Shown here piece by piece: positions 1 to 56,835 of a stretch of DNA of 64,000 nucleotides; position 1 is the stretch's first letter; every line of letters starts with the position of its first letter. Source of the DNA: a bacterium (GTDB taxonomy: Bacteria; Elusimicrobiota; Elusimicrobia; UBA1565; UBA9628); assembly GCA_021822495.1 (NCBI GenBank), contig JAKAQO010000001.1:264808-328807 (forward strand), in the 5' to 3' direction. The position numbers and the translations under genes were made by a program. The notes below the pieces were generated by a model. That model was not told the origin of the DNA and searched no databases. It saw only the letters and a program-made list of their open reading frames with translations.

Positions 1-384
1 GCCTGCGTTAAAAATGACGCGACCGGAGTCGCCAAGATTCTCAACGCCATGCCCAAGGGCGCTGTCAATCATATTTACAATAATCTCGCCGGACATCACG
101 GGGCCGGAGTTATTTGGTGCGCGGTGGGATTTCAAAATACGGTCATGGTCAAAGTGATGCTTGAACACGGAGCGAAACTCGACGGTAAAAGCGCGACCGG
201 CTGGACCTTGGCCATGGAAGCGGCAGCGACGGGAAATGACGTCATCGTCGGCATGCTCCACGCTCACGGGGCTAATTTCTGCGCGAAAAACAAAGACGGC
301 CAAACCGCGGCGGACATGGCCAAATCCTACGGATTCCCCAAAATCGCCCAAGAAATCAATTCCTGGACAATATCCTGCCGGTAA
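1..384 (+). CDS. Ankyrin-repeat protein, 5' partial (the frame is open to the window start)
   Basis: Frame 1 is open from position 1. The translation shows tandem ankyrin-like repeats (…GATPLHAA-type 'GWTLAMEAAATGNDVIVGMLHAHGANFCAKNKDGQTAADMA'). A terminator hairpin follows. Confidence 0.6.
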   Translation, partial: ACVKNDATGVAKILNAMPKGAVNHIYNNLAGHHGAGVIWCAVGFQNTVMVKVMLEHGAKLDGKSATGWTLAMEAAATGNDVIVGMLHAHGANFCAKNKDGQTAADMAKSYGFPKIAQEINSWTISCR

Positions 385-389
385 AAGGT

Positions 390-415
390 AAAAGGGGACT
401 GTCCCCTTTTTTTCT
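390..415 (+). terminator. Rho-independent terminator formed by a palindromic element (AAAAGGGGACTGTCCCCTTTTTTT), copy 1 of the repeat family
   Basis: Perfect 6-bp stem GGGGAC/GTCCCC around a central T, followed by a T7 run, directly after the ankyrin stop codon. Confidence 0.6.
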
Positions 416-3257: not shown

Positions 3258-4412
3258 ATGATTCCCATTTTTGGCGTCGCCGCGGAATATAAAAAAATTC
3301 GCAAAGACTTAAGAAAAGCCGCTCTTGAGGTTCTCGATTCCGGACATTATATTCTCGGTCCACACACAAGCGCGTTTGAACAGGAGTTCGCTTCCCTTAT
3401 GGAAGCCAAGCACGCCATCAGCCTTTCTTCCGGAACTGACGCCCTGGAAGTCGCCTTAAGAGCTTTGGGAGTCGGCCCGGGAGATGAGGTGATTGTTCCG
3501 ACATTTACCTTTGTCGCGACCGCCGCCGCCGTTTCTATCGTTGGCGCAACGCCGGTTTTTTGCGATGTAGACGCAAAAACTTTAAATATCGGCGCGAAAG
3601 AAATAGAAGCCGTTCTCACCCACAAGACTAAAGCCATTATCCCGGTTCATCTTTACGGCTCTCCGGCCAACATGACGGAAATTATGGAGTTAGCCCATCG
3701 CCGCAACCTCTTTGTTGTCGAAGACTGCGCCCAGGCCCATTTGGCCCGCTGGCAGGGAAAACCCGTCGGATCTTTCGGCCACATCGCGGCTTTCAGCTTT
3801 TATCCCTCTAAAAATCTAGGGGCTTTGGGCGACGCCGGAGCGGTGACCACCAACGACTCCGCCCTAGCCAATATTTGTCTGGAAACAAGAAACGCCGGGC
3901 GCGGCCTCACGGGGCCCACCTACGAATACGCGCGAGTGGCCGGCAACAGCCGCATGGCGGAAATTCAGGCGGCTTTTTTGCGCGTCAAACTCAAAGGGCT
4001 TAAGGAAAGAACGGATCAAAGAATCGAAGTCGCTAAATTTTACGAGAAAAAATTCTCAAAGCTTCCGTTAATCTTGCCGCCCGTCGGGGACGGCATAACG
4101 CAACCCGTGTTTCACCTCTACGTTATCCGAACTGAAAAAAGAGACGAACTCGCGAGTCATCTTAAAGAAGCGGGGGTGTCCTGCGGGGTTTATTATCCCC
4201 TCCCGCTTCATAGACAAAAATGCTATCAACACCTTAATCTCAACCCGGCAGCGTTCCCAAACGCCGAGAAAGCCTCTCAAACAGTCTTAGCCCTTCCCAT
4301 GCACCCATTTCTTTCTAAAAAGGAAATGGCACAAGTGGCACAAGCCGTGACTTCTTTTTTCAAAGGCTCGCGCTCAAAGCTCAATCAAGAAAGTCTATCC
4401 GTCGCCTCATAA
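3258..4412 (+). CDS. DegT/DnrJ/EryC1/StrS-family PLP-dependent sugar aminotransferase
   Basis: Motifs 'SSGTDALEVAL', 'DEVIVPTFTFVAT', 'FSFYPSKNLGALGDAG'. AAGGAG RBS upstream of the ATG. Confidence 0.85.
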   Translation: MIPIFGVAAEYKKIRKDLRKAALEVLDSGHYILGPHTSAFEQEFASLMEAKHAISLSSGTDALEVALRALGVGPGDEVIVPTFTFVATAAAVSIVGATPVFCDVDAKTLNIGAKEIEAVLTHKTKAIIPVHLYGSPANMTEIMELAHRRNLFVVEDCAQAHLARWQGKPVGSFGHIAAFSFYPSKNLGALGDAGAVTTNDSALANICLETRNAGRGLTGPTYEYARVAGNSRMAEIQAAFLRVKLKGLKERTDQRIEVAKFYEKKFSKLPLILPPVGDGITQPVFHLYVIRTEKRDELASHLKEAGVSCGVYYPLPLHRQKCYQHLNLNPAAFPNAEKASQTVLALPMHPFLSKKEMAQVAQAVTSFFKGSRSKLNQESLSVAS

Positions 4413-8631: not shown

Positions 8632-9636
8632 ATGCCCCCCATTCTTTCCATCTCCAATCTCAAGGTCCGCTTTTCAACCGATTCCGGCACGATTGGGGCC
8701 GTTGAAAACCTAAACTATTCTCTCAACGCGAATCAAACCCTGGCCATCGTCGGGGAATCCGGATCCGGGAAAAGCGTCCATGCGCTTTCCATTCTCCGGC
8801 TTCTGCCGCCCCCGCCCCAATGCCTAGTTGAGGGAGAAATTTTATTTCACGACAAAAATCTTTTAAATCTCCCGCTCAAGGAAATGCGCAAAATCCGGGG
8901 AGACCGCATCGCGATGATTTTCCAAGAACCGATGACTTCCTTAAACCCGGTTTTAACCATCGGAGAACAGATCGCCGAGCCCTTGATGATTCACAAGGGA
9001 AAAACGCGCTCAGACGCCCTCAATGAGGCGGCGCGGCTTTTAGACCGCGTGGGAATTCCCGACGCAAAAAGCCGTCTCAAGAATTATCCTCATCAATTTT
9101 CCGGCGGAATGCGCCAGCGCGCGATGATCGCGATGGCTTTAAGCTGCAACCCCGAAATTTTAATCGCTGATGAGCCAACCACCGCCTTGGATGTCACCAT
9201 TCAAGCTCAAATTCTCGAACTCATCAAGGAACTCCAAAAGGAGTTTCACATGGCGGTGATTCTAATCACCCACAACATCGGCATCGTCGCCGACATGGCG
9301 GATCAAATGATTGTGATGTATGCGGGGCGGGCTGTTGAAACGGCTCCCATGAATTCTCTTTTTAACCATCCTTCCCATCCCTACACCCAGGGACTTTTAA
9401 GCGCGATTCCGTCTCTTGATTCCAAAAAAAATCGCCTTGAGTCTATTCCTGGTCGCCCCCCGGATTTAAAAAATAAGCCCCAGGGATGTCCTTTTTCTCC
9501 GCGCTGCCCTAAGGTTCAAGCCCAATGCAGGGAAAACGACCCGCCCTTTTTTGACCTTGGAGATGCTCACAAAGCCAACTGCTGGCTCATGGAAGAGTTA
9601 GGGACAGTCCCCAATTCTCAAGGAGAAAAAGTATGA
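8632..9636 (+). CDS. oppD: Oligopeptide/dipeptide ABC transporter ATP-binding protein (OppD/DppD-like)
   Basis: Walker A 'GESGSGKS', signature '[12 protein letters not shown]', Walker B '[11 protein letters not shown]', C-terminal oligopeptide-type extension. Start trimmed to the internal ATG with a GAGG RBS. Confidence 0.8.
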
Positions 9637-10646
9637 CAGAAGTTAGAGACAGTCCCCAATTTCCTCCTATTCTTGAAGTCAAAAATATCCGGAAATTTTT
9701 CTCATCCAAAGCGGGAATCTTTGGAAGCCCTAAAACCGTCCGCGCTCTCGACGGGATTTCTCTCTCGGTTCAAAGAGGAAAGACGCTGGGAATCGTGGGA
9801 GAATCCGGATGCGGGAAAACGACCCTGGGCAGAATTCTCGCGGCGCTTGAAACTCCAACGGAGGGGCAAATTTTCTACGAAGGCCGCGAAATCCAGAGCC
9901 TTAAGGGCCGGGAACTAAAAAAATTCAGGAAAGAAGTTCAAATCATCTTCCAAGACCCCTACGCAAGCCTCGATCCGAGAATGACGATTTTCGAAATTTT
10001 AAGCGAACCCTTTATTATTCACGGAGAATGGGACTCCGCCGAAACTCCTAAACGTTTATTGAAGCTCGCTTCAACCTGTGGAATCTCCCAGAGCCATTTT
10101 TCCCGCTACCCGCACGAATTTTCGGGCGGACAAAGACAAAGAGTGGGAATCGCCCGAGCCTTGGCCTTAAACCCGAAACTTGTCATCTGCGATGAACCGG
10201 TGAGCGCACTGGATGTTTCCATTCAGGCTCAAATTCTCAATCTGCTCAAGGACCTCCAGGAAGAAATGGGACTCACCTATGTTTTCATCTCGCATGATTT
10301 TTCGGTCGTCCGGCATCTCTGCGATGAAATCGCGGTCATGTATTTAGGCCGCGTTGTCGAGTCCGCCAAGGCCGACGAAATTTTTTCAAACTCCCAGCAT
10401 CCATACACCGAAGCCCTTTTGTCGGCCATCCCTCTGACCGACCCCGAAAAACAAAAATCGCGAAAGCGCATCATCCTCTCAGGAGATATTCCAAGCCCGC
10501 TCAACCCTCCCGCCGGATGTCCGTTTCATCCCCGTTGCCGTTATACCGAAAACTCGTGTCGCGAAAATGTGCCCGCTCTTTCAGAAATCTCTTCTAACCA
10601 TTTGATTTCTTGCCCCGTTCGCCCGCTCGCAAAAGTTCCTTCATAA
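9633..10646 (+). CDS. oppF: Oligopeptide/dipeptide ABC transporter ATP-binding protein (OppF/DppF-like)
   Basis: 'GESGCGKTT', 'FSGGQRQRVGIARAL', 'VICDEPVSALD'. Overlaps the oppD stop (ATGA). Confidence 0.8.
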   Translation: MTEVRDSPQFPPILEVKNIRKFFSSKAGIFGSPKTVRALDGISLSVQRGKTLGIVGESGCGKTTLGRILAALETPTEGQIFYEGREIQSLKGRELKKFRKEVQIIFQDPYASLDPRMTIFEILSEPFIIHGEWDSAETPKRLLKLASTCGISQSHFSRYPHEFSGGQRQRVGIARALALNPKLVICDEPVSALDVSIQAQILNLLKDLQEEMGLTYVFISHDFSVVRHLCDEIAVMYLGRVVESAKADEIFSNSQHPYTEALLSAIPLTDPEKQKSRKRIILSGDIPSPLNPPAGCPFHPRCRYTENSCRENVPALSEISSNHLISCPVRPLAKVPS

Positions 10647-19261: not shown

Positions 19262-19285
19262 AAAAAAAGGGACAGTCCCCTTTTT
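19262..19285 (-). terminator. Palindromic element copy 2 (AAAAAGGGGACTGTCCCTTTTTTT on the minus strand), a terminator between the PaaA-like gene and hbd
   Basis: Same GGGAC(A/T)GTCCC core with flanking A/T runs, 3 nt after the PaaA-like stop and immediately 5' of the hbd ATG. Confidence 0.5.
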
Positions 19286-19287
19286 AT

Positions 19288-20115
19288 CTATCCGGGAATA
19301 AAGGGCTCTTCCGTCATCTTGGAAATTTCCGGCTTCCAATCGGGAACCTTGAGCCCAAATTGGGCGCATTTGTTTTTAACATCGGCGGCGAAAGATTGAC
19401 GAACCTCGTCATTATCCCGTTTTTTGAGCCCCAGCTTGCGGTAAATTTTATTTTTAGGAGATTCCGCCCGACCGAAAATATTCATCGTTCGCGGATACCA
19501 TTTATCGAGGGCCTTTTGGAGTTCATCGTGGGTCTTATCGTCTTTGGCCAATTTCTCGGTCCACTGATCCCCGTGCGCCATGTGCATTCCTTCTTCCTTA
19601 AAGATTCCGTCCATGACGTCGCACCAGGGCTTATAGGATGAATCCATCGCGTCTTCCAGTTGATGCCCGGCTCCCCGGTCCATGCAGAAATTAAACATGA
19701 TGAAGTCATACCAGGTCTCAATCGGATAATAAAAGATATTGACCCGCTTATCCTCGGCCACGCGCTTGGTTCCGATGTCGTCGTCTTGGACGCGCAGATT
19801 AAAATTGTGGCTTTGGTAATAATCATCCACGTTAATTCCCATTCCTTCTAAAAGACGGTACATCACCCGCGCATGGCGCACTTCATCTTTAACGATTTGG
19901 GCGACTTGCAAAGTCTCTTTAATATCCGGTGATTTCGCGATCCACGGAACGTATCCAAAAGCCCCGGCAAGCTCCGAGTCGGCCTGCATCATCATGAGAT
20001 GAGTCAAATTTTCTCGATATTCATCCGTCATTTCATCCAGCGTTTCAATCTTTTTTCCCGACGCAATCTTGGCTTGCAATTTTTCTTCTTTAACGCGCTC
20101 CGGTTCTTTGGACAT
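19288..20115 (-). CDS. Ferritin-like di-iron protein of the PaaA/PaaC (phenylacetyl-CoA epoxidase subunit) family
   Basis: 'MMMQADSELAGAFGYVPWIAKSPDIKETLQVAQIVKDEVRHARVMYRLLEGMG' fits the PF05138-type ExxH ferritin-like pattern. Confidence 0.55.
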   Translation of the reverse strand: MSKEPERVKEEKLQAKIASGKKIETLDEMTDEYRENLTHLMMMQADSELAGAFGYVPWIAKSPDIKETLQVAQIVKDEVRHARVMYRLLEGMGINVDDYYQSHNFNLRVQDDDIGTKRVAEDKRVNIFYYPIETWYDFIMFNFCMDRGAGHQLEDAMDSSYKPWCDVMDGIFKEEGMHMAHGDQWTEKLAKDDKTHDELQKALDKWYPRTMNIFGRAESPKNKIYRKLGLKKRDNDEVRQSFAADVKNKCAQFGLKVPDWKPEISKMTEEPFIPG

Positions 20116-20129
20116 AAGGCCTCCAGAAA

Positions 20130-20933
20130 CTATTTTCCTTTAAAATTAGGCTTTCGCTTTTCTAAAAATGCCGTAACGCCTTCCGCGTGATCTTCCGTTT
20201 TTCCCAAAATCTCCTGCAACTGGGCTTCATACTCCATCTGGGTTTCTAAATCATTTTCCAGGGAGCGGTTCAAAGCTCGTTTGGTCAACGCGACCGATAA
20301 AGGCGGGGCGCTTAAAATTTCTTTCGCCAAATCCCAAGCCGCCGGCCCGACTTCTTCGGGACTCGCCAAACGATTGACCCAGCCGAATCGAAACGCATCT
20401 TCGGCCGTTATGGGTTTGGCCGTCCAGGCGTATTCCAGGGCTAAAGAGAGTCCCAGAAAACGAGGCATAAAATAAGTCATGCCGGAATCCGGAACCAATC
20501 CCACGCGGGAAAAGGCGTTGATAAATTTCGCATCGCGGCTCGCGACCTTAATATCGGTAGACAAAATCAAACTCGCCCCCGCTCCGGCGGCGAGACCGTT
20601 AATCGCTCCAATCACCGGTTTTTCAAGCTTGCGAATTTGAGAAATTAAAGGATTAAAATGGCGGCGCAGTTCATCCCCCAGGGAAAAAGGAGCCTCCGCC
20701 TGCCGCTCTTTCAAATCTCCCAAATCGGCTCCGGCGCAAAAGGCTCGCCCAGCGGCGGTTAAAATCACGCAACGAATTTCTGGAGTTTTCTCCGCTTTTT
20801 TAAGGGCTTCTGAAATGCCTTTGAGCATTTCCAGGGTCAGCGAGTTGAGAACCTCCGGACGGTTTAAGGTCAAGGTCATGACCCCGCCTTCCATCTGAAT
20901 CAACAGGGGTTGAGACTCGGCGATTCGGGTCAT
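20130..20933 (-). CDS. Enoyl-CoA hydratase/isomerase (crotonase family)
   Basis: 'NRPEVLNSLT', 'AAGRAFCAGADL', 'IGAINGLAAGAGASL' crotonase motifs. Confidence 0.8.
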   Translation of the reverse strand: MTRIAESQPLLIQMEGGVMTLTLNRPEVLNSLTLEMLKGISEALKKAEKTPEIRCVILTAAGRAFCAGADLGDLKERQAEAPFSLGDELRRHFNPLISQIRKLEKPVIGAINGLAAGAGASLILSTDIKVASRDAKFINAFSRVGLVPDSGMTYFMPRFLGLSLALEYAWTAKPITAEDAFRFGWVNRLASPEEVGPAAWDLAKEILSAPPLSVALTKRALNRSLENDLETQMEYEAQLQEILGKTEDHAEGVTAFLEKRKPNFKGK

Positions 20934-24771: not shown

Positions 24772-24797
24772 CAGAATAATCTCCTGATTAAGTTTTT

Positions 24798-24858
24798 TGG
24801 TAGGAGTTATCATCCTCGGAGAGACCAAGGCTTTTAGGCGAACCCCATCGCCTGTGGT
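24798..24858 (-). ncRNA. Fluoride riboswitch (crcB RNA motif) in the crcB 5' leader
   Basis: Minus strand reads AGGCGAUGGGGUUCGCCUAAAAGCC…GAGGAUGAUAACUCCUACC, matching the conserved GGCGAUGGnGUUCGCC…AAA…CUGAUGAUnCCUAC pseudoknot core, ~20 nt upstream of the RBS and ATG. Confidence 0.7.
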
Positions 24859-24863
24859 TTATT

Positions 24864-53770: not shown

Positions 53771-55166
53771 CGGCGGAATCCAGAGCGCTCAGCATATCCG
53801 AGACGCGGGAAAATTTCTCTCGTGTTTTGCCCTTCCTTTTTCCTTCTTCGATTTCGATTTGATCGAGTTTTTTCCATTCGGGAAAGGAGACAAATCGGCG
53901 CCGGCGTTCCCTTAAAAATTGTTCCATGGAAGCGGGTGGATGAACGGGCGGAACTGTCCAGCCGAATTTTCCGGCCAAGGCGTCCTCCAACATCCCTTTG
54001 ACAGTGGCGACCGAGTCGGCGCGGTTGGTACCGATGAGACCGCTCGGCCCTCTCTTAGCCCACCCCACCACGTATTCTCCCATACAGGGATTCTTTAAGT
54101 CCGAGGAAAGAACCCGCCCTTCCCGGTTGGGAATTTTTCCAGATTTTAAATCAAACGGAACTCCGGAAATGGGCGCGCCGCGATATCCAACCGAACGAAA
54201 GACAAGGCCGGCCGGCAATGTCTCAAACTGTCCGGTTCCCACGGCCTTGGCCTTTCCGTTTCCATCAGATACTAGGCGATTTTTCTCGATCTTAAGCCCC
54301 CCAACCCGGCCATCCTCAATAACGATTTCAACGGGAGAAACACAAAAACGAAGCCGAATTTTTCTGGGCTTATTTCCTTCTCCCATCTTCGCCTGGGCCT
54401 GGACATAATCGACATTCTTTTTATTTTCGGGATTCAGATAGTCGGTCTTTGAGGCTTCATCCAGCCGCGCCTCGTCTTCCCTGACCACCAAATCCGCCGT
54501 CGTAAGGCTTCCCAGCTCCTTAATCTCCGCCGGAGAATACGCGGCTTGGGCCGGGCCCCGACGCCCTAAAAGATAGACGATCTTGATTCGGCTCTGCCTT
54601 AAAGTTTCAAGAGCGTAATCCGCGATATCGGTCTTGGCTAGGATTTCCGGGCCTTCGGCCAAAATCCGCGCGACATCAATGGCGACGTTCCCAACTCCCA
54701 CAATCGCCGCGCTTTCGCAAGATAAATCGAATTTCTGATCCCGATAATCGGGATGGGCGTTGTACCATCCGACAAAAGCGGTCGCGGAATGACTGCCCAA
54801 AGCGTCTTCTCCGGGAATTACCATTTTTCGGTCCGTCTCAGCCCCGACCGCATAAACGATTTGATGATAGCGTTCTTTTAAATCAGAAACCTGGATGTCC
54901 TTTCCTAATTGAATATTCCCAAAAAAACGAAAACCCGGAAGCTGCGCGATTTTTTCATAAACTGCGGTCACGGCCTTGATTTTTTGGTGATCCGGAGCCA
55001 CCCCGCCGCGAACAAGCCCATAGGGAGTGGGCAAACGATCGAAAAGATCAACTTCAACCGGAACCTCTTTTTGCTTAAGAAGGGCCTCGGCGGCATAAAA
55101 GCCGGAGGGGCCGGAACCAACAATCGCCACCCGTAAAATTTTTTGAGAAAACTTGTCATCCGCCAT
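53757..55166 (-). CDS. FAD/NAD(P)-dependent ferredoxin–NADP+ reductase of the adrenodoxin-reductase (FprA) type
   Basis: 'LRVAIVGSGPSGFYAAEAL…DLFDRLPTPYGLVRGGVAPDH' with a second Rossmann 'AAIVGVGNVAIDVARIL'. Start trimmed to MADDKF. Confidence 0.75.
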   Translation of the reverse strand: MADDKFSQKILRVAIVGSGPSGFYAAEALLKQKEVPVEVDLFDRLPTPYGLVRGGVAPDHQKIKAVTAVYEKIAQLPGFRFFGNIQLGKDIQVSDLKERYHQIVYAVGAETDRKMVIPGEDALGSHSATAFVGWYNAHPDYRDQKFDLSCESAAIVGVGNVAIDVARILAEGPEILAKTDIADYALETLRQSRIKIVYLLGRRGPAQAAYSPAEIKELGSLTTADLVVREDEARLDEASKTDYLNPENKKNVDYVQAQAKMGEGNKPRKIRLRFCVSPVEIVIEDGRVGGLKIEKNRLVSDGNGKAKAVGTGQFETLPAGLVFRSVGYRGAPISGVPFDLKSGKIPNREGRVLSSDLKNPCMGEYVVGWAKRGPSGLIGTNRADSVATVKGMLEDALAGKFGWTVPPVHPPASMEQFLRERRRRFVSFPEWKKLDQIEIEEGKRKGKTREKFSRVSDMLSALDSAVGTA

Positions 55167-55278
55167 AACGCCCCCTTTAACCCTTCTCATGCCTTTTCCA
55201 ATCAATCGTAAGGACGGCATTGCCCCAACCATAAGCGCCCTGTCGCGAAAGAAGGGGCTAATAAGTAAAATATTTAAA

Positions 55279-56835
55279 ATGGGACTTATACATCAAGCGA
55301 AAAATAACGACCCCGTCGAGACTCTTCAAGAGCTTCTCAAACGCAGAGCCCAAGAAGCTCCGGGGAAGCCCTTTCTTTTCTTTAAAGACCAAATTTGGAG
55401 CAGACAAGAATTGGATATCGCCTCAAGCATCTTGGCCCAGGAAATCAAGGACCTTGGCGTCAAAGCCCAAGACCGCGTCGCCCTCATTGTTCCCAATGGA
55501 CCGGAATTCATCCTTCATTTCTTTGGAATCCTCAAGGCGGGAGCTCTCGTCGTTCCGGTCAACACCGCACTCAAAGAAGAAGAGATTTCTTTTATTCTCA
55601 AAGACTCAGGCGCGGTCTGCGCCTTCACGGGGCCGTCTCATGAGAAAAGCCTCAAATCCTTGACTGACCGCATCCCTTCCCTCAAAACCATTCAAGCTCT
55701 CCCTTTGGGGGAAGACAAAAATTTCTGGCTCAAAAAGGGGACAGTCCCCTTTATTGAGGAAAAGGGGACTGTCCCCTTTTCGGCGAGCCTCATCTACACC
55801 TCGGGAACGACCGGTTTCCCCAAAGGCGCCGAACTCACACATCGCAACTATCTGTTTGACGTGCAGAAATTCGTCGAAGCGACTCAAATGAATGAGTCCG
55901 ACCGGTTTTTATGTTTTCTGCCCCTTTTTCACGTCAACGCCCAAGTCGTCACTCTTTTATCCCCCCTCTATTGCGGCGGCGCCATGGTCTTGATGGAAAA
56001 ATTCGCGCCCAAGGAATTTTTTGAAACCCTCTCCTCAAAAAAAGCGACCTCCTTTAGCGGGGTTCCGTCCGTCTATTCCGTGCTTTTAGGCGTTCCGGAT
56101 TCCGCTAATTACGATTTATCCTCTCTTCGGTTTTGCATCTGCGGAGCGGCCCCGATGCCGGTTGAGATTTTTGAGCGCTTTGAAAAAAAATTCAACGCCT
56201 ACATCCTCGAGGGATATGGACTCTCGGAAGGAACCTGCGTTTCTTCCATCAACCCGCCGCCCCCGCAAAAAAGAAAAATCGGTTCCATCGGCCTTGCGCT
56301 CAAAGATCAGAATATGAAAATTTTGGATTCCGCAGGAACAGAACTTCCACGCGGGGAGATTGGCGAAATCGCGATTCAAGGCGAAAACGTCATGAAAGGC
56401 TATTGGAATAATTCCTCCGCAACCTCGCAAACCATTAGAGATGGTTGGCTCTACACCGGCGATTTAGGCTATCAAGACGCGAACGGATTTTTCTTTATCG
56501 CGGGGCGTTCAAAAGAAATGATTATCCGCGGCGGAGAAAACATCTACCCCAAGGAAGTGGAAGAGTCCCTCTATCGCCATCCCGCCATTTTGGAAGCGGC
56601 CGTGATTGGACTCCCGGATCAGCGTTGGGGCGAAGAAGTGGCGGCCTTTTTGGTTTTAAAAGAAGGTCAAAGTTTAACCGCCAAGGATGTTCGCCTATTT
56701 CTCAAAGACAAAATCGCCGATTATAAAATCCCGCGGCAAATCGAGATTCTTTCTTCCTTGCCTAAAACGGCGACCGGAAAAATCCAAAAGCTAAAGCTCA
56801 AAAAAGAAATTTGCGAAAGGGAGGGACTCCGATAA
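55279..56835 (+). CDS. Long-chain-fatty-acid–CoA ligase (AMP-binding), carrying an in-frame palindromic-repeat insertion before the P-loop
   Basis: 'IYTSGTTGFPKGA' AMP-binding motif and 'YGLSEGT', 'GYWNN', 'YTGDLG' cores. Start trimmed to MGLIHQ. Confidence 0.85.
   Translation: MGLIHQAKNNDPVETLQELLKRRAQEAPGKPFLFFKDQIWSRQELDIASSILAQEIKDLGVKAQDRVALIVPNGPEFILHFFGILKAGALVVPVNTALKEEEISFILKDSGAVCAFTGPSHEKSLKSLTDRIPSLKTIQALPLGEDKNFWLKKGTVPFIEEKGTVPFSASLIYTSGTTGFPKGAELTHRNYLFDVQKFVEATQMNESDRFLCFLPLFHVNAQVVTLLSPLYCGGAMVLMEKFAPKEFFETLSSKKATSFSGVPSVYSVLLGVPDSANYDLSSLRFCICGAAPMPVEIFERFEKKFNAYILEGYGLSEGTCVSSINPPPPQKRKIGSIGLALKDQNMKILDSAGTELPRGEIGEIAIQGENVMKGYWNNSSATSQTIRDGWLYTGDLGYQDANGFFFIAGRSKEMIIRGGENIYPKEVEESLYRHPAILEAAVIGLPDQRWGEEVAAFLVLKEGQSLTAKDVRLFLKDKIADYKIPRQIEILSSLPKTATGKIQKLKLKKEICEREGLR
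55732..55781. repeat. Inverted pair of palindromic elements (copies 3 and 4: AAAAAGGGGACAGTCCCCTTT…AAAAGGGGACTGTCCCCTTTT) inside the AMP-ligase CDS
   Basis: Identical cores to 394..406 and 19269..19280. Translates in-frame as KKGTVPFIEEKGTVPFSA. Confidence 0.7.

Follow-up and report, generated by a model that had tools for sequence, protein, structure and literature searches.

Repetitive extragenic palindromes (REPs) are typically located within 20 bp of the 3′ ends of open reading frames (ORFs), and REPs also flank genes for REP-associated tyrosine transposases (RAYTs), an arrangement termed a REPtron (PMC3733652). Intragenic REPs lying wholly within ORFs have been described in several species, with over half of them being dimers or groups that encode about 20-30 residues, and DNA replication and repair genes are often among those hit (Di Nocera et al. 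2013, BMC Genomics 14:522, PMC3733652). Two REPs a short distance apart that form one long hairpin constitute a REPIN, which is a replicating unit (Bertels et al. 2017, PMC5581495; also Bertels and Rainey 2011), and the cognate RAYT is usually a single-copy, IS200-like HUH/Y1 transposase with the same REPs on its flanks and long-term vertical inheritance (PMC5581495). Here we describe a short palindrome, GGGGACWGTCCCC, in a 64-kb stretch of contig JAKAQO010000001.1 (assembly GCA_021822495.1; referred to below as the window), and in particular a pair of its copies that is translated within an acyl-CoA synthetase (AMP-ligase) gene. The host is Elusimicrobiota-like, as indicated by the best named hits of its UvrA (73-75% identity).

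Two further systems are relevant to this pair. The E. coli REPs and bacterial interspersed mosaic elements (BIMEs) are presented, in the work of Ton-Hoang 2012 and Messing 2012 as cited in PMC5581495, as GC-rich hairpin repeats downstream of genes, whose single-strand hairpins are bound and cleaved by the Y1 transposase TnpA-REP; as cited there, the palindrome of these REPs is imperfect and cleavage is guided by a 5′ GTAG, and terminator or mRNA-stabiliser action is possible. The Rickettsia palindromic elements (RPEs) of Ogata et al. 2000, as cited in PMC3733652, are in-frame palindromic selfish repeats in functional genes that add a surface peptide, and RPE-4 and RPE-6 are treated as intragenic REPs in PMC3733652. 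We consider it probable that GGGGACWGTCCCC is a REP and that the pair in the ligase gene is a REPIN-like doublet, acquired before three related species split and inherited vertically. Intragenic REP pairs are rare, and are of a kind already described.

A palindromic pair in an acyl-CoA synthetase gene

The ligase coding sequence (CDS; 55279..56835, plus strand) encodes an intact protein of 518 residues with full-length Pfam AMP-binding and AMP-binding_C matches, the former covering model positions 2-384 of 384. The ORF is listed as 55153..56835, and 55279 was taken as the real CDS start. Window positions 55732-55781 (aaaaaGGGGACAGTCCCCtttattgaggaaaaGGGGACTGTCCCCtttt) contain two copies of the palindrome. 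Copy 1 is a 19-nt perfect palindrome, AAAGGGGACAGTCCCCTTT (55734..55752), with the 13-nt core GGGGACAGTCCCC at 55737-55749 and A at its centre, and copy 2 is a 23-nt perfect palindrome, GAAAAGGGGACTGTCCCCTTTTC (55759..55781), with the 13-nt core GGGGACTGTCCCC at 55764-55776 and T at its centre. Both are read in frame as K-G-T-V-P-F, and the frame across the pair is FWLKKGTVPFIEEKGTVPFSASLIYTSGTTGFPKG. The whole doublet, as defined by its reverse-complement arms and its fold, spans 48 nt (55733..55780) and encodes residues 152-167. The palindrome has no stop codon in any frame (KRG(Q/L)SPF, KGD(S/C)PL and KGTVPF), and its symmetry makes the two strands equivalent.

The arms of the doublet (55733-55752 and 55761-55780) are exact reverse complements of 20 nt each, separated by an 8-nt spacer, and form the longest perfect hairpin of the window. 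Folding of the doublet as RNA gave a single 20-bp stem with an 8-nt loop (-44.8 kcal/mol, z = -6.85), folding as DNA gave -25.8 kcal/mol (z = -7.5), and the z-scores of the palindrome folds overall ranged from -3 to -7.5. Each copy is a short, GC-rich palindrome with stem-loop potential, as a REP (about 20-40 bp) is, and the two copies pair into one long hairpin, as in a REPIN. An earlier reading of the window, made from the sequence only, had noted the two in-frame copies just before the P-loop of the ligase, the KGTVPF peptide with either centre base and the long hairpin formed by the pair, and all three held up in the present analysis.

Exact GGGGACWGTCCCC was present three times in the window (at 394, 55737 and 55764), against an expectation of 0.00 from 100 dinucleotide-preserving shuffles, and seven matches were found when up to two mismatches were allowed, against 1.25 expected. 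The 11-nt core GGGACWGTCCC was present five times (at 395, 9601, 19269, 55738 and 55765), and the perfect palindromes measured 19 nt (at 55734), 21 nt (at 390) and 23 nt (at 55759). The palindrome is thus in excess over chance in the window, and the count of four copies given in the sequence-only reading was replaced by three exact 13-mers and five 11-nt cores.

Two of the five cores lie directly past stop codons, two in the ligase gene and one (9601) in the 3′ end of an oppD-like gene. The copy at 390..410 (plus strand), AAAAGGGGACTGTCCCCTTTT followed by a T-run, starts 6 nt past the stop of an ankyrin-repeat ORF (49..384). The copy at 19264..19285 (minus strand), which reads AAAAAGGGGACTGTCCCTTTTT and then a T-run, is located between the stop of a PaaA/PaaC-like ORF (19288..20115, minus strand) and the ATG (19261) of the next minus-strand gene, which encodes a 3-hydroxyacyl-CoA dehydrogenase. 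Both are terminator-like in the sense orientation of their respective upstream gene (390-410, plus; 19285-19264, minus), with a GC-rich hairpin and a direct T-run downstream of a gene. The two ligase-internal copies were not called terminator-like because only four T follow each of them.

The remaining core copy, GGGACAGTCCC (9601-9611), is accompanied by a degenerate direct copy, AGAGACAGTCCCC (9645-9657), and the two share the flanks GTTAG...CCCCAATT. Together (9601..9657, plus strand) they lie across the boundary between two genes for oligopeptide-ABC ATPases, at the oppD-like 3′ end and the oppF-like 5′ end. The direct pair reads GTTAGGGACAGTCCCCAATT and GTTAGAGACAGTCCCCAATT, 45 nt apart, across the oppD-like stop and the oppF-like start, and the C-terminal tail of the oppD-like protein and the N-terminus of the oppF-like protein seem to be supplied by REP-derived sequence.

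No GTAG/CTAC or CGTC/GACG tag was present at the flanks of any window copy, these flanks being A-runs and T-runs or GTTA/AATT, and Rfam gave no match at the palindromes. No duplicated target was visible next to the window copies, the element being only 19-48 nt. Classification as a miniature inverted-repeat transposable element was rejected, since 70-300 bp, terminal inverted repeats and a target-site duplication would be expected, and the copies are 19-48 nt without visible duplicated target. An operator site, a DNA uptake sequence and a restriction site were also considered; no evidence was found for these, and the RAYT link described below fits the data better.

Other features of the window were noted in passing. 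Rfam identified a fluoride riboswitch at 24794-24861 on the minus strand (RF01734, 47.1 bits, E 6.4e-10) and a DUF3800-VI RNA motif at 32001-32064 on the plus strand (RF02915, 39.7 bits, gathering score 35), the latter upstream of ORF 32085..32822 and uvrA. GC skew was negative in all 4-kb blocks of the window (1-64000; -0.06 to -0.13), which places the whole window on one replichore arm, a location that could be relevant to a hairpin element handled as single-strand DNA. In the independent and more fragmented assembly GCA_027401815.1, contig DAHZIB010000128.1 (L126) breaks off about 620 nt away from the window REP at 390-410, and further short contigs have their ends close to the edges of this region; such contig ends may reflect repeat-induced fragmentation.

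Conservation of the pair in three species

The ligase is 100% identical to collection protein P0001, and the identical protein is present on 6 contigs. In the independent assembly GCA_027401815.1 (L003) the DNA is also identical, and orthologues that come from other samples and other assemblers likewise have both cores. Palindromes can mis-assemble, and several contigs of a related assembly end near REP copies; with this independent support and the intact reading frame, however, an assembly or sequencing artefact, which the sequence-only reading had named as one way in which its proposal could fail, has next to no probability.

The six closest ligase homologues are syntenic orthologues. Two of these, L001 (86% amino acid and 83% nucleotide identity) and L002 (82% and 81%), keep both 11-nt cores exactly and at the same positions while the flanking codons differ, with the doublet region reading LEIGTVPISAELGTVPISAS in L001 and LKSGTVPFLELGTVPDSAS in L002, which has an in-frame 3-nt deletion within the spacer. 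The presence of both cores at the same site indicates that the doublet is older than the split of the three species and not recent. The same residues without the palindrome, which would have pointed to an ancestral loop, were therefore not what these orthologues showed. The centre base is T/T in both sister species, and as the two units are a 27-nt direct repeat with their orientation set only by this base, the earlier description of an inverted pair was dropped. The sister clade L004-L007 (75-78% amino acid identity) has no palindrome; it reads LELGPVPDSPRPDSAT, with G-P-V-P (GGC CCG GTT CCC) at the homologous spot.

The conservation of the cores extends to synonymous positions. Among four-fold sites at which the first two bases are conserved, 82 of 185 (44%) have the same third base across the three species, and the two cores contain four of these sites, none of which has changed (0.443^4, about 0.04). 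Within the cores, variation is confined to the centre, the sole base that a palindrome leaves free. The flanks differ between the species yet remain complementary (AAAA/TTTT in the window, CGAGATA/TATCTCG in L001 and AGTC/GACT in L002), so that the long stem is retained in both relatives. For the 20-pair hairpin, 90% of cells across the three species are paired and six pairs have changed on both sides, one of them being A-U, U-A and C-G in the three species; the covariation score was reached by 0 of 500 shuffles, and slid controls were 42-57% paired. The P0121 loci belong to the same species as L001 (99.9% identical) and add no covariation data.

These observations would also be expected of an element that serves the host, whether as an mRNA hairpin affecting translation or mRNA decay, a palindromic operator for a dimeric DNA-binding protein, or a partial terminator, intragenic or antisense, and that is kept by selection whatever its origin. 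In its favour are the cores, exactly conserved in three species in which 56% of comparable four-fold sites have changed, the six compensatory pairs, the very stable fold and the terminator-like intergenic copies. Against it, the gene-internal copies lack a terminator-like call, being followed by just four T, no Rfam family matches, just three sequences are compared, and quasi-palindrome template switching or REP conversion would yield equal covariation without function. We regard a host function as quite unlikely; it is compatible with the REP explanation and does not exclude it. Selection on the hairpin, templated correction of a quasi-palindrome and conversion from other REPs may each have kept the symmetry, and the three fit equally on three sequences.

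The doublet is located in a part of the protein that tolerates change. In an AlphaFold2 model of the ligase (mean pLDDT 86.6, pTM 0.87), the stretch that links helix 147-152 to strand 168-174, residues 152-167, is a coil with a local pLDDT of about 71-79, and the strand runs into the P-loop, which puts the doublet just ahead of it and agrees with the surface loop that the sequence-only reading had proposed to check by modelling. Across 29 homologues this pre-P-loop loop is hypervariable in length and sequence, and some lack it. The loop of the ligase is not longer than typical, with a gain of 4 residues relative to the sister clade and of 10 relative to the solved homologue 8weu, which has a 10-residue gap at the doublet site. 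The alignment therefore bore out an insertion only in the sense of a variable loop with a net gain, and not the clean addition of 18 residues that had been suggested, the sister clade already having G-P-V-P.

A requirement for a duplicated G-T-V-P in this enzyme clade, with the palindrome being a by-product of codon choice, could be read from the invariance of G-T-V-P in both units of the three species and from the G-P-V-P of the sister-clade sequence. This is very improbable: the loop is hypervariable and absent from some homologues, and its model is a moderately confident coil. Conservation extends to synonymous third positions, and covariation runs across codon boundaries, between residues for which the structure gives no cause to change together. 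The same DNA also gives other peptides (GQSP and GDSP) in the methylthiotransferase gene described below.

Comparison of sister-species strains around another REP gave a separate observation. Near positions 20263-20300, L001/L129 and L128/L130 share 99.9% identity as far as an intergenic REP, ATGGGGACTGTCCCCAATTATTTTA, beyond which they diverge completely and have different downstream genes, with L129 having a ParE/Phd toxin-antitoxin pair (not listed for L001); this REP marks the breakpoint of a variable region.

The palindrome beside RAYT genes and in other reading frames

A collection of 596 Gb was scanned with AGGGGACWGTCCCCT rather than with WGGGGACWGTCCCCW, which has too few specified bases. 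The scan returned at least 118 stretches from many phyla, most of them hairpin tips with A/T-run flanks, and only RAYT adjacency and tandem arrays, neither of which chance would be expected to give, were taken from it as signal. The pattern of a constant hairpin tip with a variable stem was set aside as a selection effect, which arises when so much sequence is scanned for members of a small space of palindromes. Tandem arrays, e.g. GGGGACTGTCCCCAGGGGACTGTCCCC, were present in Planctomycetota and Omnitrophota contigs. In L081, a 211-residue ORF was identified as Pfam Y1_Tnp (E = 3.4e-15), with palindrome doublets on both sides. A tblastn search with this RAYT found homologues with the palindrome on both sides of each gene in L018 (Nitrospira), L122 and L011 (Planctomycetota, as is L081), and a homologue in L055 (Patescibacteria) with one copy adjoining the gene. 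These five RAYTs match Pfam Y1_Tnp and conserve the HUH motif and catalytic Tyr, their mutual identity is only 27-33%, and their scores against NCBIfam NF047646 ('REP-associated tyrosine transposase') were 64.6-81.7 bits for a cut-off of 80, with one passing and four just under.

In a search that started from RAYTs, 80 metagenome relatives were fetched, two of which carry the 11-nt core directly on both sides of the gene, as AAAAATAGGGACWGTCCCTATTTTT four times in L133 and as doublets in L166; other palindromes, e.g. GGGGTCAGACCCC, are present at other RAYT loci. In total, the core directly flanks RAYT genes in seven loci (L081, L122, L011, L018, L055, L133 and L166), and its position on one or both sides of RAYT genes, which is the REPtron arrangement (PMC3733652, PMC5581495), led us to class the palindrome as a REP, in keeping with the selfish-type repeat family proposed in the sequence-only reading. 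The flank variant ATAGGGACTGTCCCTAT in L001 is identical to the form of the REP on the flanks of the L133 RAYT. One REP core common to several phyla is unusual. The RAYT-flanking loci include Planctomycetota, Nitrospira and Patescibacteria, a Caldisericota-like contig and a high-GC contig.

The palindrome is also translated in other genes. A MiaB-like radical-SAM methylthiotransferase gene in an Omnitrophota metagenome-assembled genome (MAG; L035:4052-5380, JAUSED010000009.1) contains three in-frame doublets of the same palindrome at 4309/4329, 4503/4523 and 4831/4851. Two of these are identical 46-nt units, the encoded peptides are MGTVPKRRGQSPFF (twice) and KRGQSPKKGDSPLFF, and each doublet falls at a gap relative to the solved MiaB 7mjz. 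The peptides GQSP and GDSP thus derive here from palindrome DNA that gives GTVP in the ligase. In L133, the dxr gene (812-1984) ends ...RKIGTVPIF*, and the REP flanking the RAYT (1964-1974) supplies the last residues and the run-up to the stop. A stop-to-stop test for the palindrome within a CDS, applied to the loci of the AGGGGACWGTCCCCT scan, was unreliable in high-GC contigs and was not used for frame statistics.

A RAYT of this genome was sought among homologues of the L133 RAYT, and the one candidate checked (P0184, L211) belongs to another sample. That RAYT is 55% identical to the one in L133 and lies between inverted AAAAAGGGGACAGGCTACTTTTTT and AAAAAAGTAGCCTGTCCCCTTTTT (L211:2960-2985 and 3670-3695), and its inverted flanks GGGGACAGGCTAC and GTAGCCTGTCCCC are a GTAG-tagged repeat with the GGGGACAG half of the palindrome.

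Several points weigh against a REP doublet acquired by the ligase gene. The cross-phylum matches come from a scan conditioned on the palindrome, from which no genome-wide counts or enrichment can be derived. A tblastn search (E<=1) of the window and of about 60 kb of related loci gave no RAYT, so that mobility in this genome, and any RAYT action there, past or present, are things that we infer; a RAYT flanked by AAAAGGGGACWGTCCCCTTTT would be expected in this genome under the REP-RAYT explanation. Only five core copies are present in the window and three of them touch coding sequence, so a mostly extragenic distribution is not evident from such a small sample. The two units are a 27-nt direct tandem repeat, 21/27 identical in the window and 24/27 in L001 (Tandem Repeats Finder reported period 27 in L001, and did not call the window pair at its thresholds), for which slippage alone would also suffice. 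There is no clean empty site, as the sister-clade loop is just 4 residues shorter and has G-P-V-P where the palindrome sits; the palindrome could have formed in place by few substitutions (from GGCCCGGTTCCC), or the sister-clade sequence could be a decayed REP. Finally, the covariation comes from three sequences, in which two separate short hairpins (90.5% paired, 6 pairs) fit as well as the one long hairpin, indicating that palindromic symmetry is conserved and not one particular fold.

A local origin would have an indel-prone, hypervariable loop undergo a 27-nt slippage duplication of chance-palindromic codons, with the likeness to REPs being coincidence or convergence and no mobile element involved. 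It draws on the tandem repeat and on the G-P-V-P present there without a palindrome, and also on two sister-clade changes in the same loop, a separate 15-nt duplication (PDSPR/PDSAT) and, in L006, an insertion of 13 codons. We nevertheless consider it unlikely, as the identical 13-mer with the same A/T-run flanks is present at unrelated intergenic sites of the window where none is expected, the palindrome is a RAYT-flanking REP in seven loci, and the L001 flank variant is that of the L133 REP. Further, copy 2 in the window differs by five substitutions (TTG->AAG, GAC->TTT) from the presumed ancestral unit GAA TTG GGG ACT GTC CCC GAC (as in L002; ELGTVPDS), and all five lengthen the palindrome toward the intergenic consensus of this genome.

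For the REP doublet that we favour, the following course of events is proposed. A RAYT would recognise GGGGACWGTCCCC as a single-strand DNA hairpin and spread it, with some copies settling just past stop codons, where they would resemble intrinsic terminators. Either a REP pair, or one REP followed by a 27-nt tandem duplication, would have entered the ligase gene before the three sister species split, the order of insertion and duplication being left to either course, and vertical inheritance would have followed, with symmetry held by paired changes on both arms. The doublet would be tolerated, and would survive in the gene, because it is stop-free in every frame, its 48-nt length and 27-nt spacing are multiples of three, it occupies a hypervariable surface loop before the P-loop, and the core motifs of the enzyme are untouched.

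A bolder version, which we put forward only tentatively and hold to be rather doubtful, is that the doublet is under selection as a nucleic-acid structure, i.e. a translated REPIN whose hairpin is kept across speciation and acts on mRNA or DNA, and, separately, that RAYTs of at least five phyla, although very divergent (27-33% identical), recognise one conserved hairpin, the 13-nt GGGGACWGTCCCC core. If true, this would be an ancient, fixed transposase-hairpin code, as opposed to the species-specific REPs usually described.

The ligase doublet would represent a clear case of REP-type selfish DNA within a working enzyme gene of an uncultured Elusimicrobiota-like lineage, with three orthologues in which the palindrome is preserved with compensatory changes while the surrounding loop has diverged. 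It makes testable whether intragenic REPs are tolerated, or are maintained by RAYT activity, templated palindrome repair or host function. The core shared across phyla, at RAYT flanks and in the Omnitrophota MiaB gene, suggests an unusually widespread REP family, which would matter more if upheld in complete genomes. For annotation, loop 'insertions' with GTVP, GDSP or GQSP in MAG proteins may be REP-derived.

Comparison with described systems

The ligase palindrome does not occur in the text or supplements of PMC3733652, and a full-text search of the literature for it returned only unrelated eukaryotic primers and sequences. Compared with the E. coli REPs and BIMEs, as cited in PMC5581495, two of the window copies are likewise GC-rich hairpins downstream of genes, with a terminator-like sequence; unlike those REPs, the window palindrome is perfect, with a single-base loop and no tag.

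The analogy with Rickettsia elements made in the sequence-only reading proved apt, given that RPE-4 and RPE-6 are treated as intragenic REPs in PMC3733652 and that the L035 MiaB gene has three in-frame doublets. As with RPEs, a palindromic repeat of selfish type resides in frame and the host gene, here encoding the 518-residue ligase, stays intact. Unlike the RPE-1 type, which is about 100-150 bp and Rickettsia-specific, the unit is 19-23 nt and the doublet 48 nt, the host belongs to another phylum and the element is RAYT-linked elsewhere, so that size and host both set it apart from the Rickettsia families.

The doublet resembles REPIN-RAYT systems in that two close REPs pair as one hairpin and are inherited vertically. 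It differs from described REPINs, which are almost always extragenic, in being translated, and each ligase REP is itself a perfect palindrome, so that orientation within the doublet is undefined. In contrast to REPIN-RAYT systems, a cognate RAYT was not found in the 64-kb window or the related loci.

The closest match is with the intragenic REP dimers of Di Nocera et al. (2013), as the ligase doublet is paired and wholly inside an ORF and other window copies lie directly past stop codons, where REPs of that study are found. In that study REPs are sorted by a GTAG or CGTC end tag, and the window copies have neither; the host here is an uncultured Elusimicrobiota-like bacterium and the host gene an acyl-CoA synthetase. 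Beyond what was described there, the ligase doublet is conserved, with covariation, across three species.

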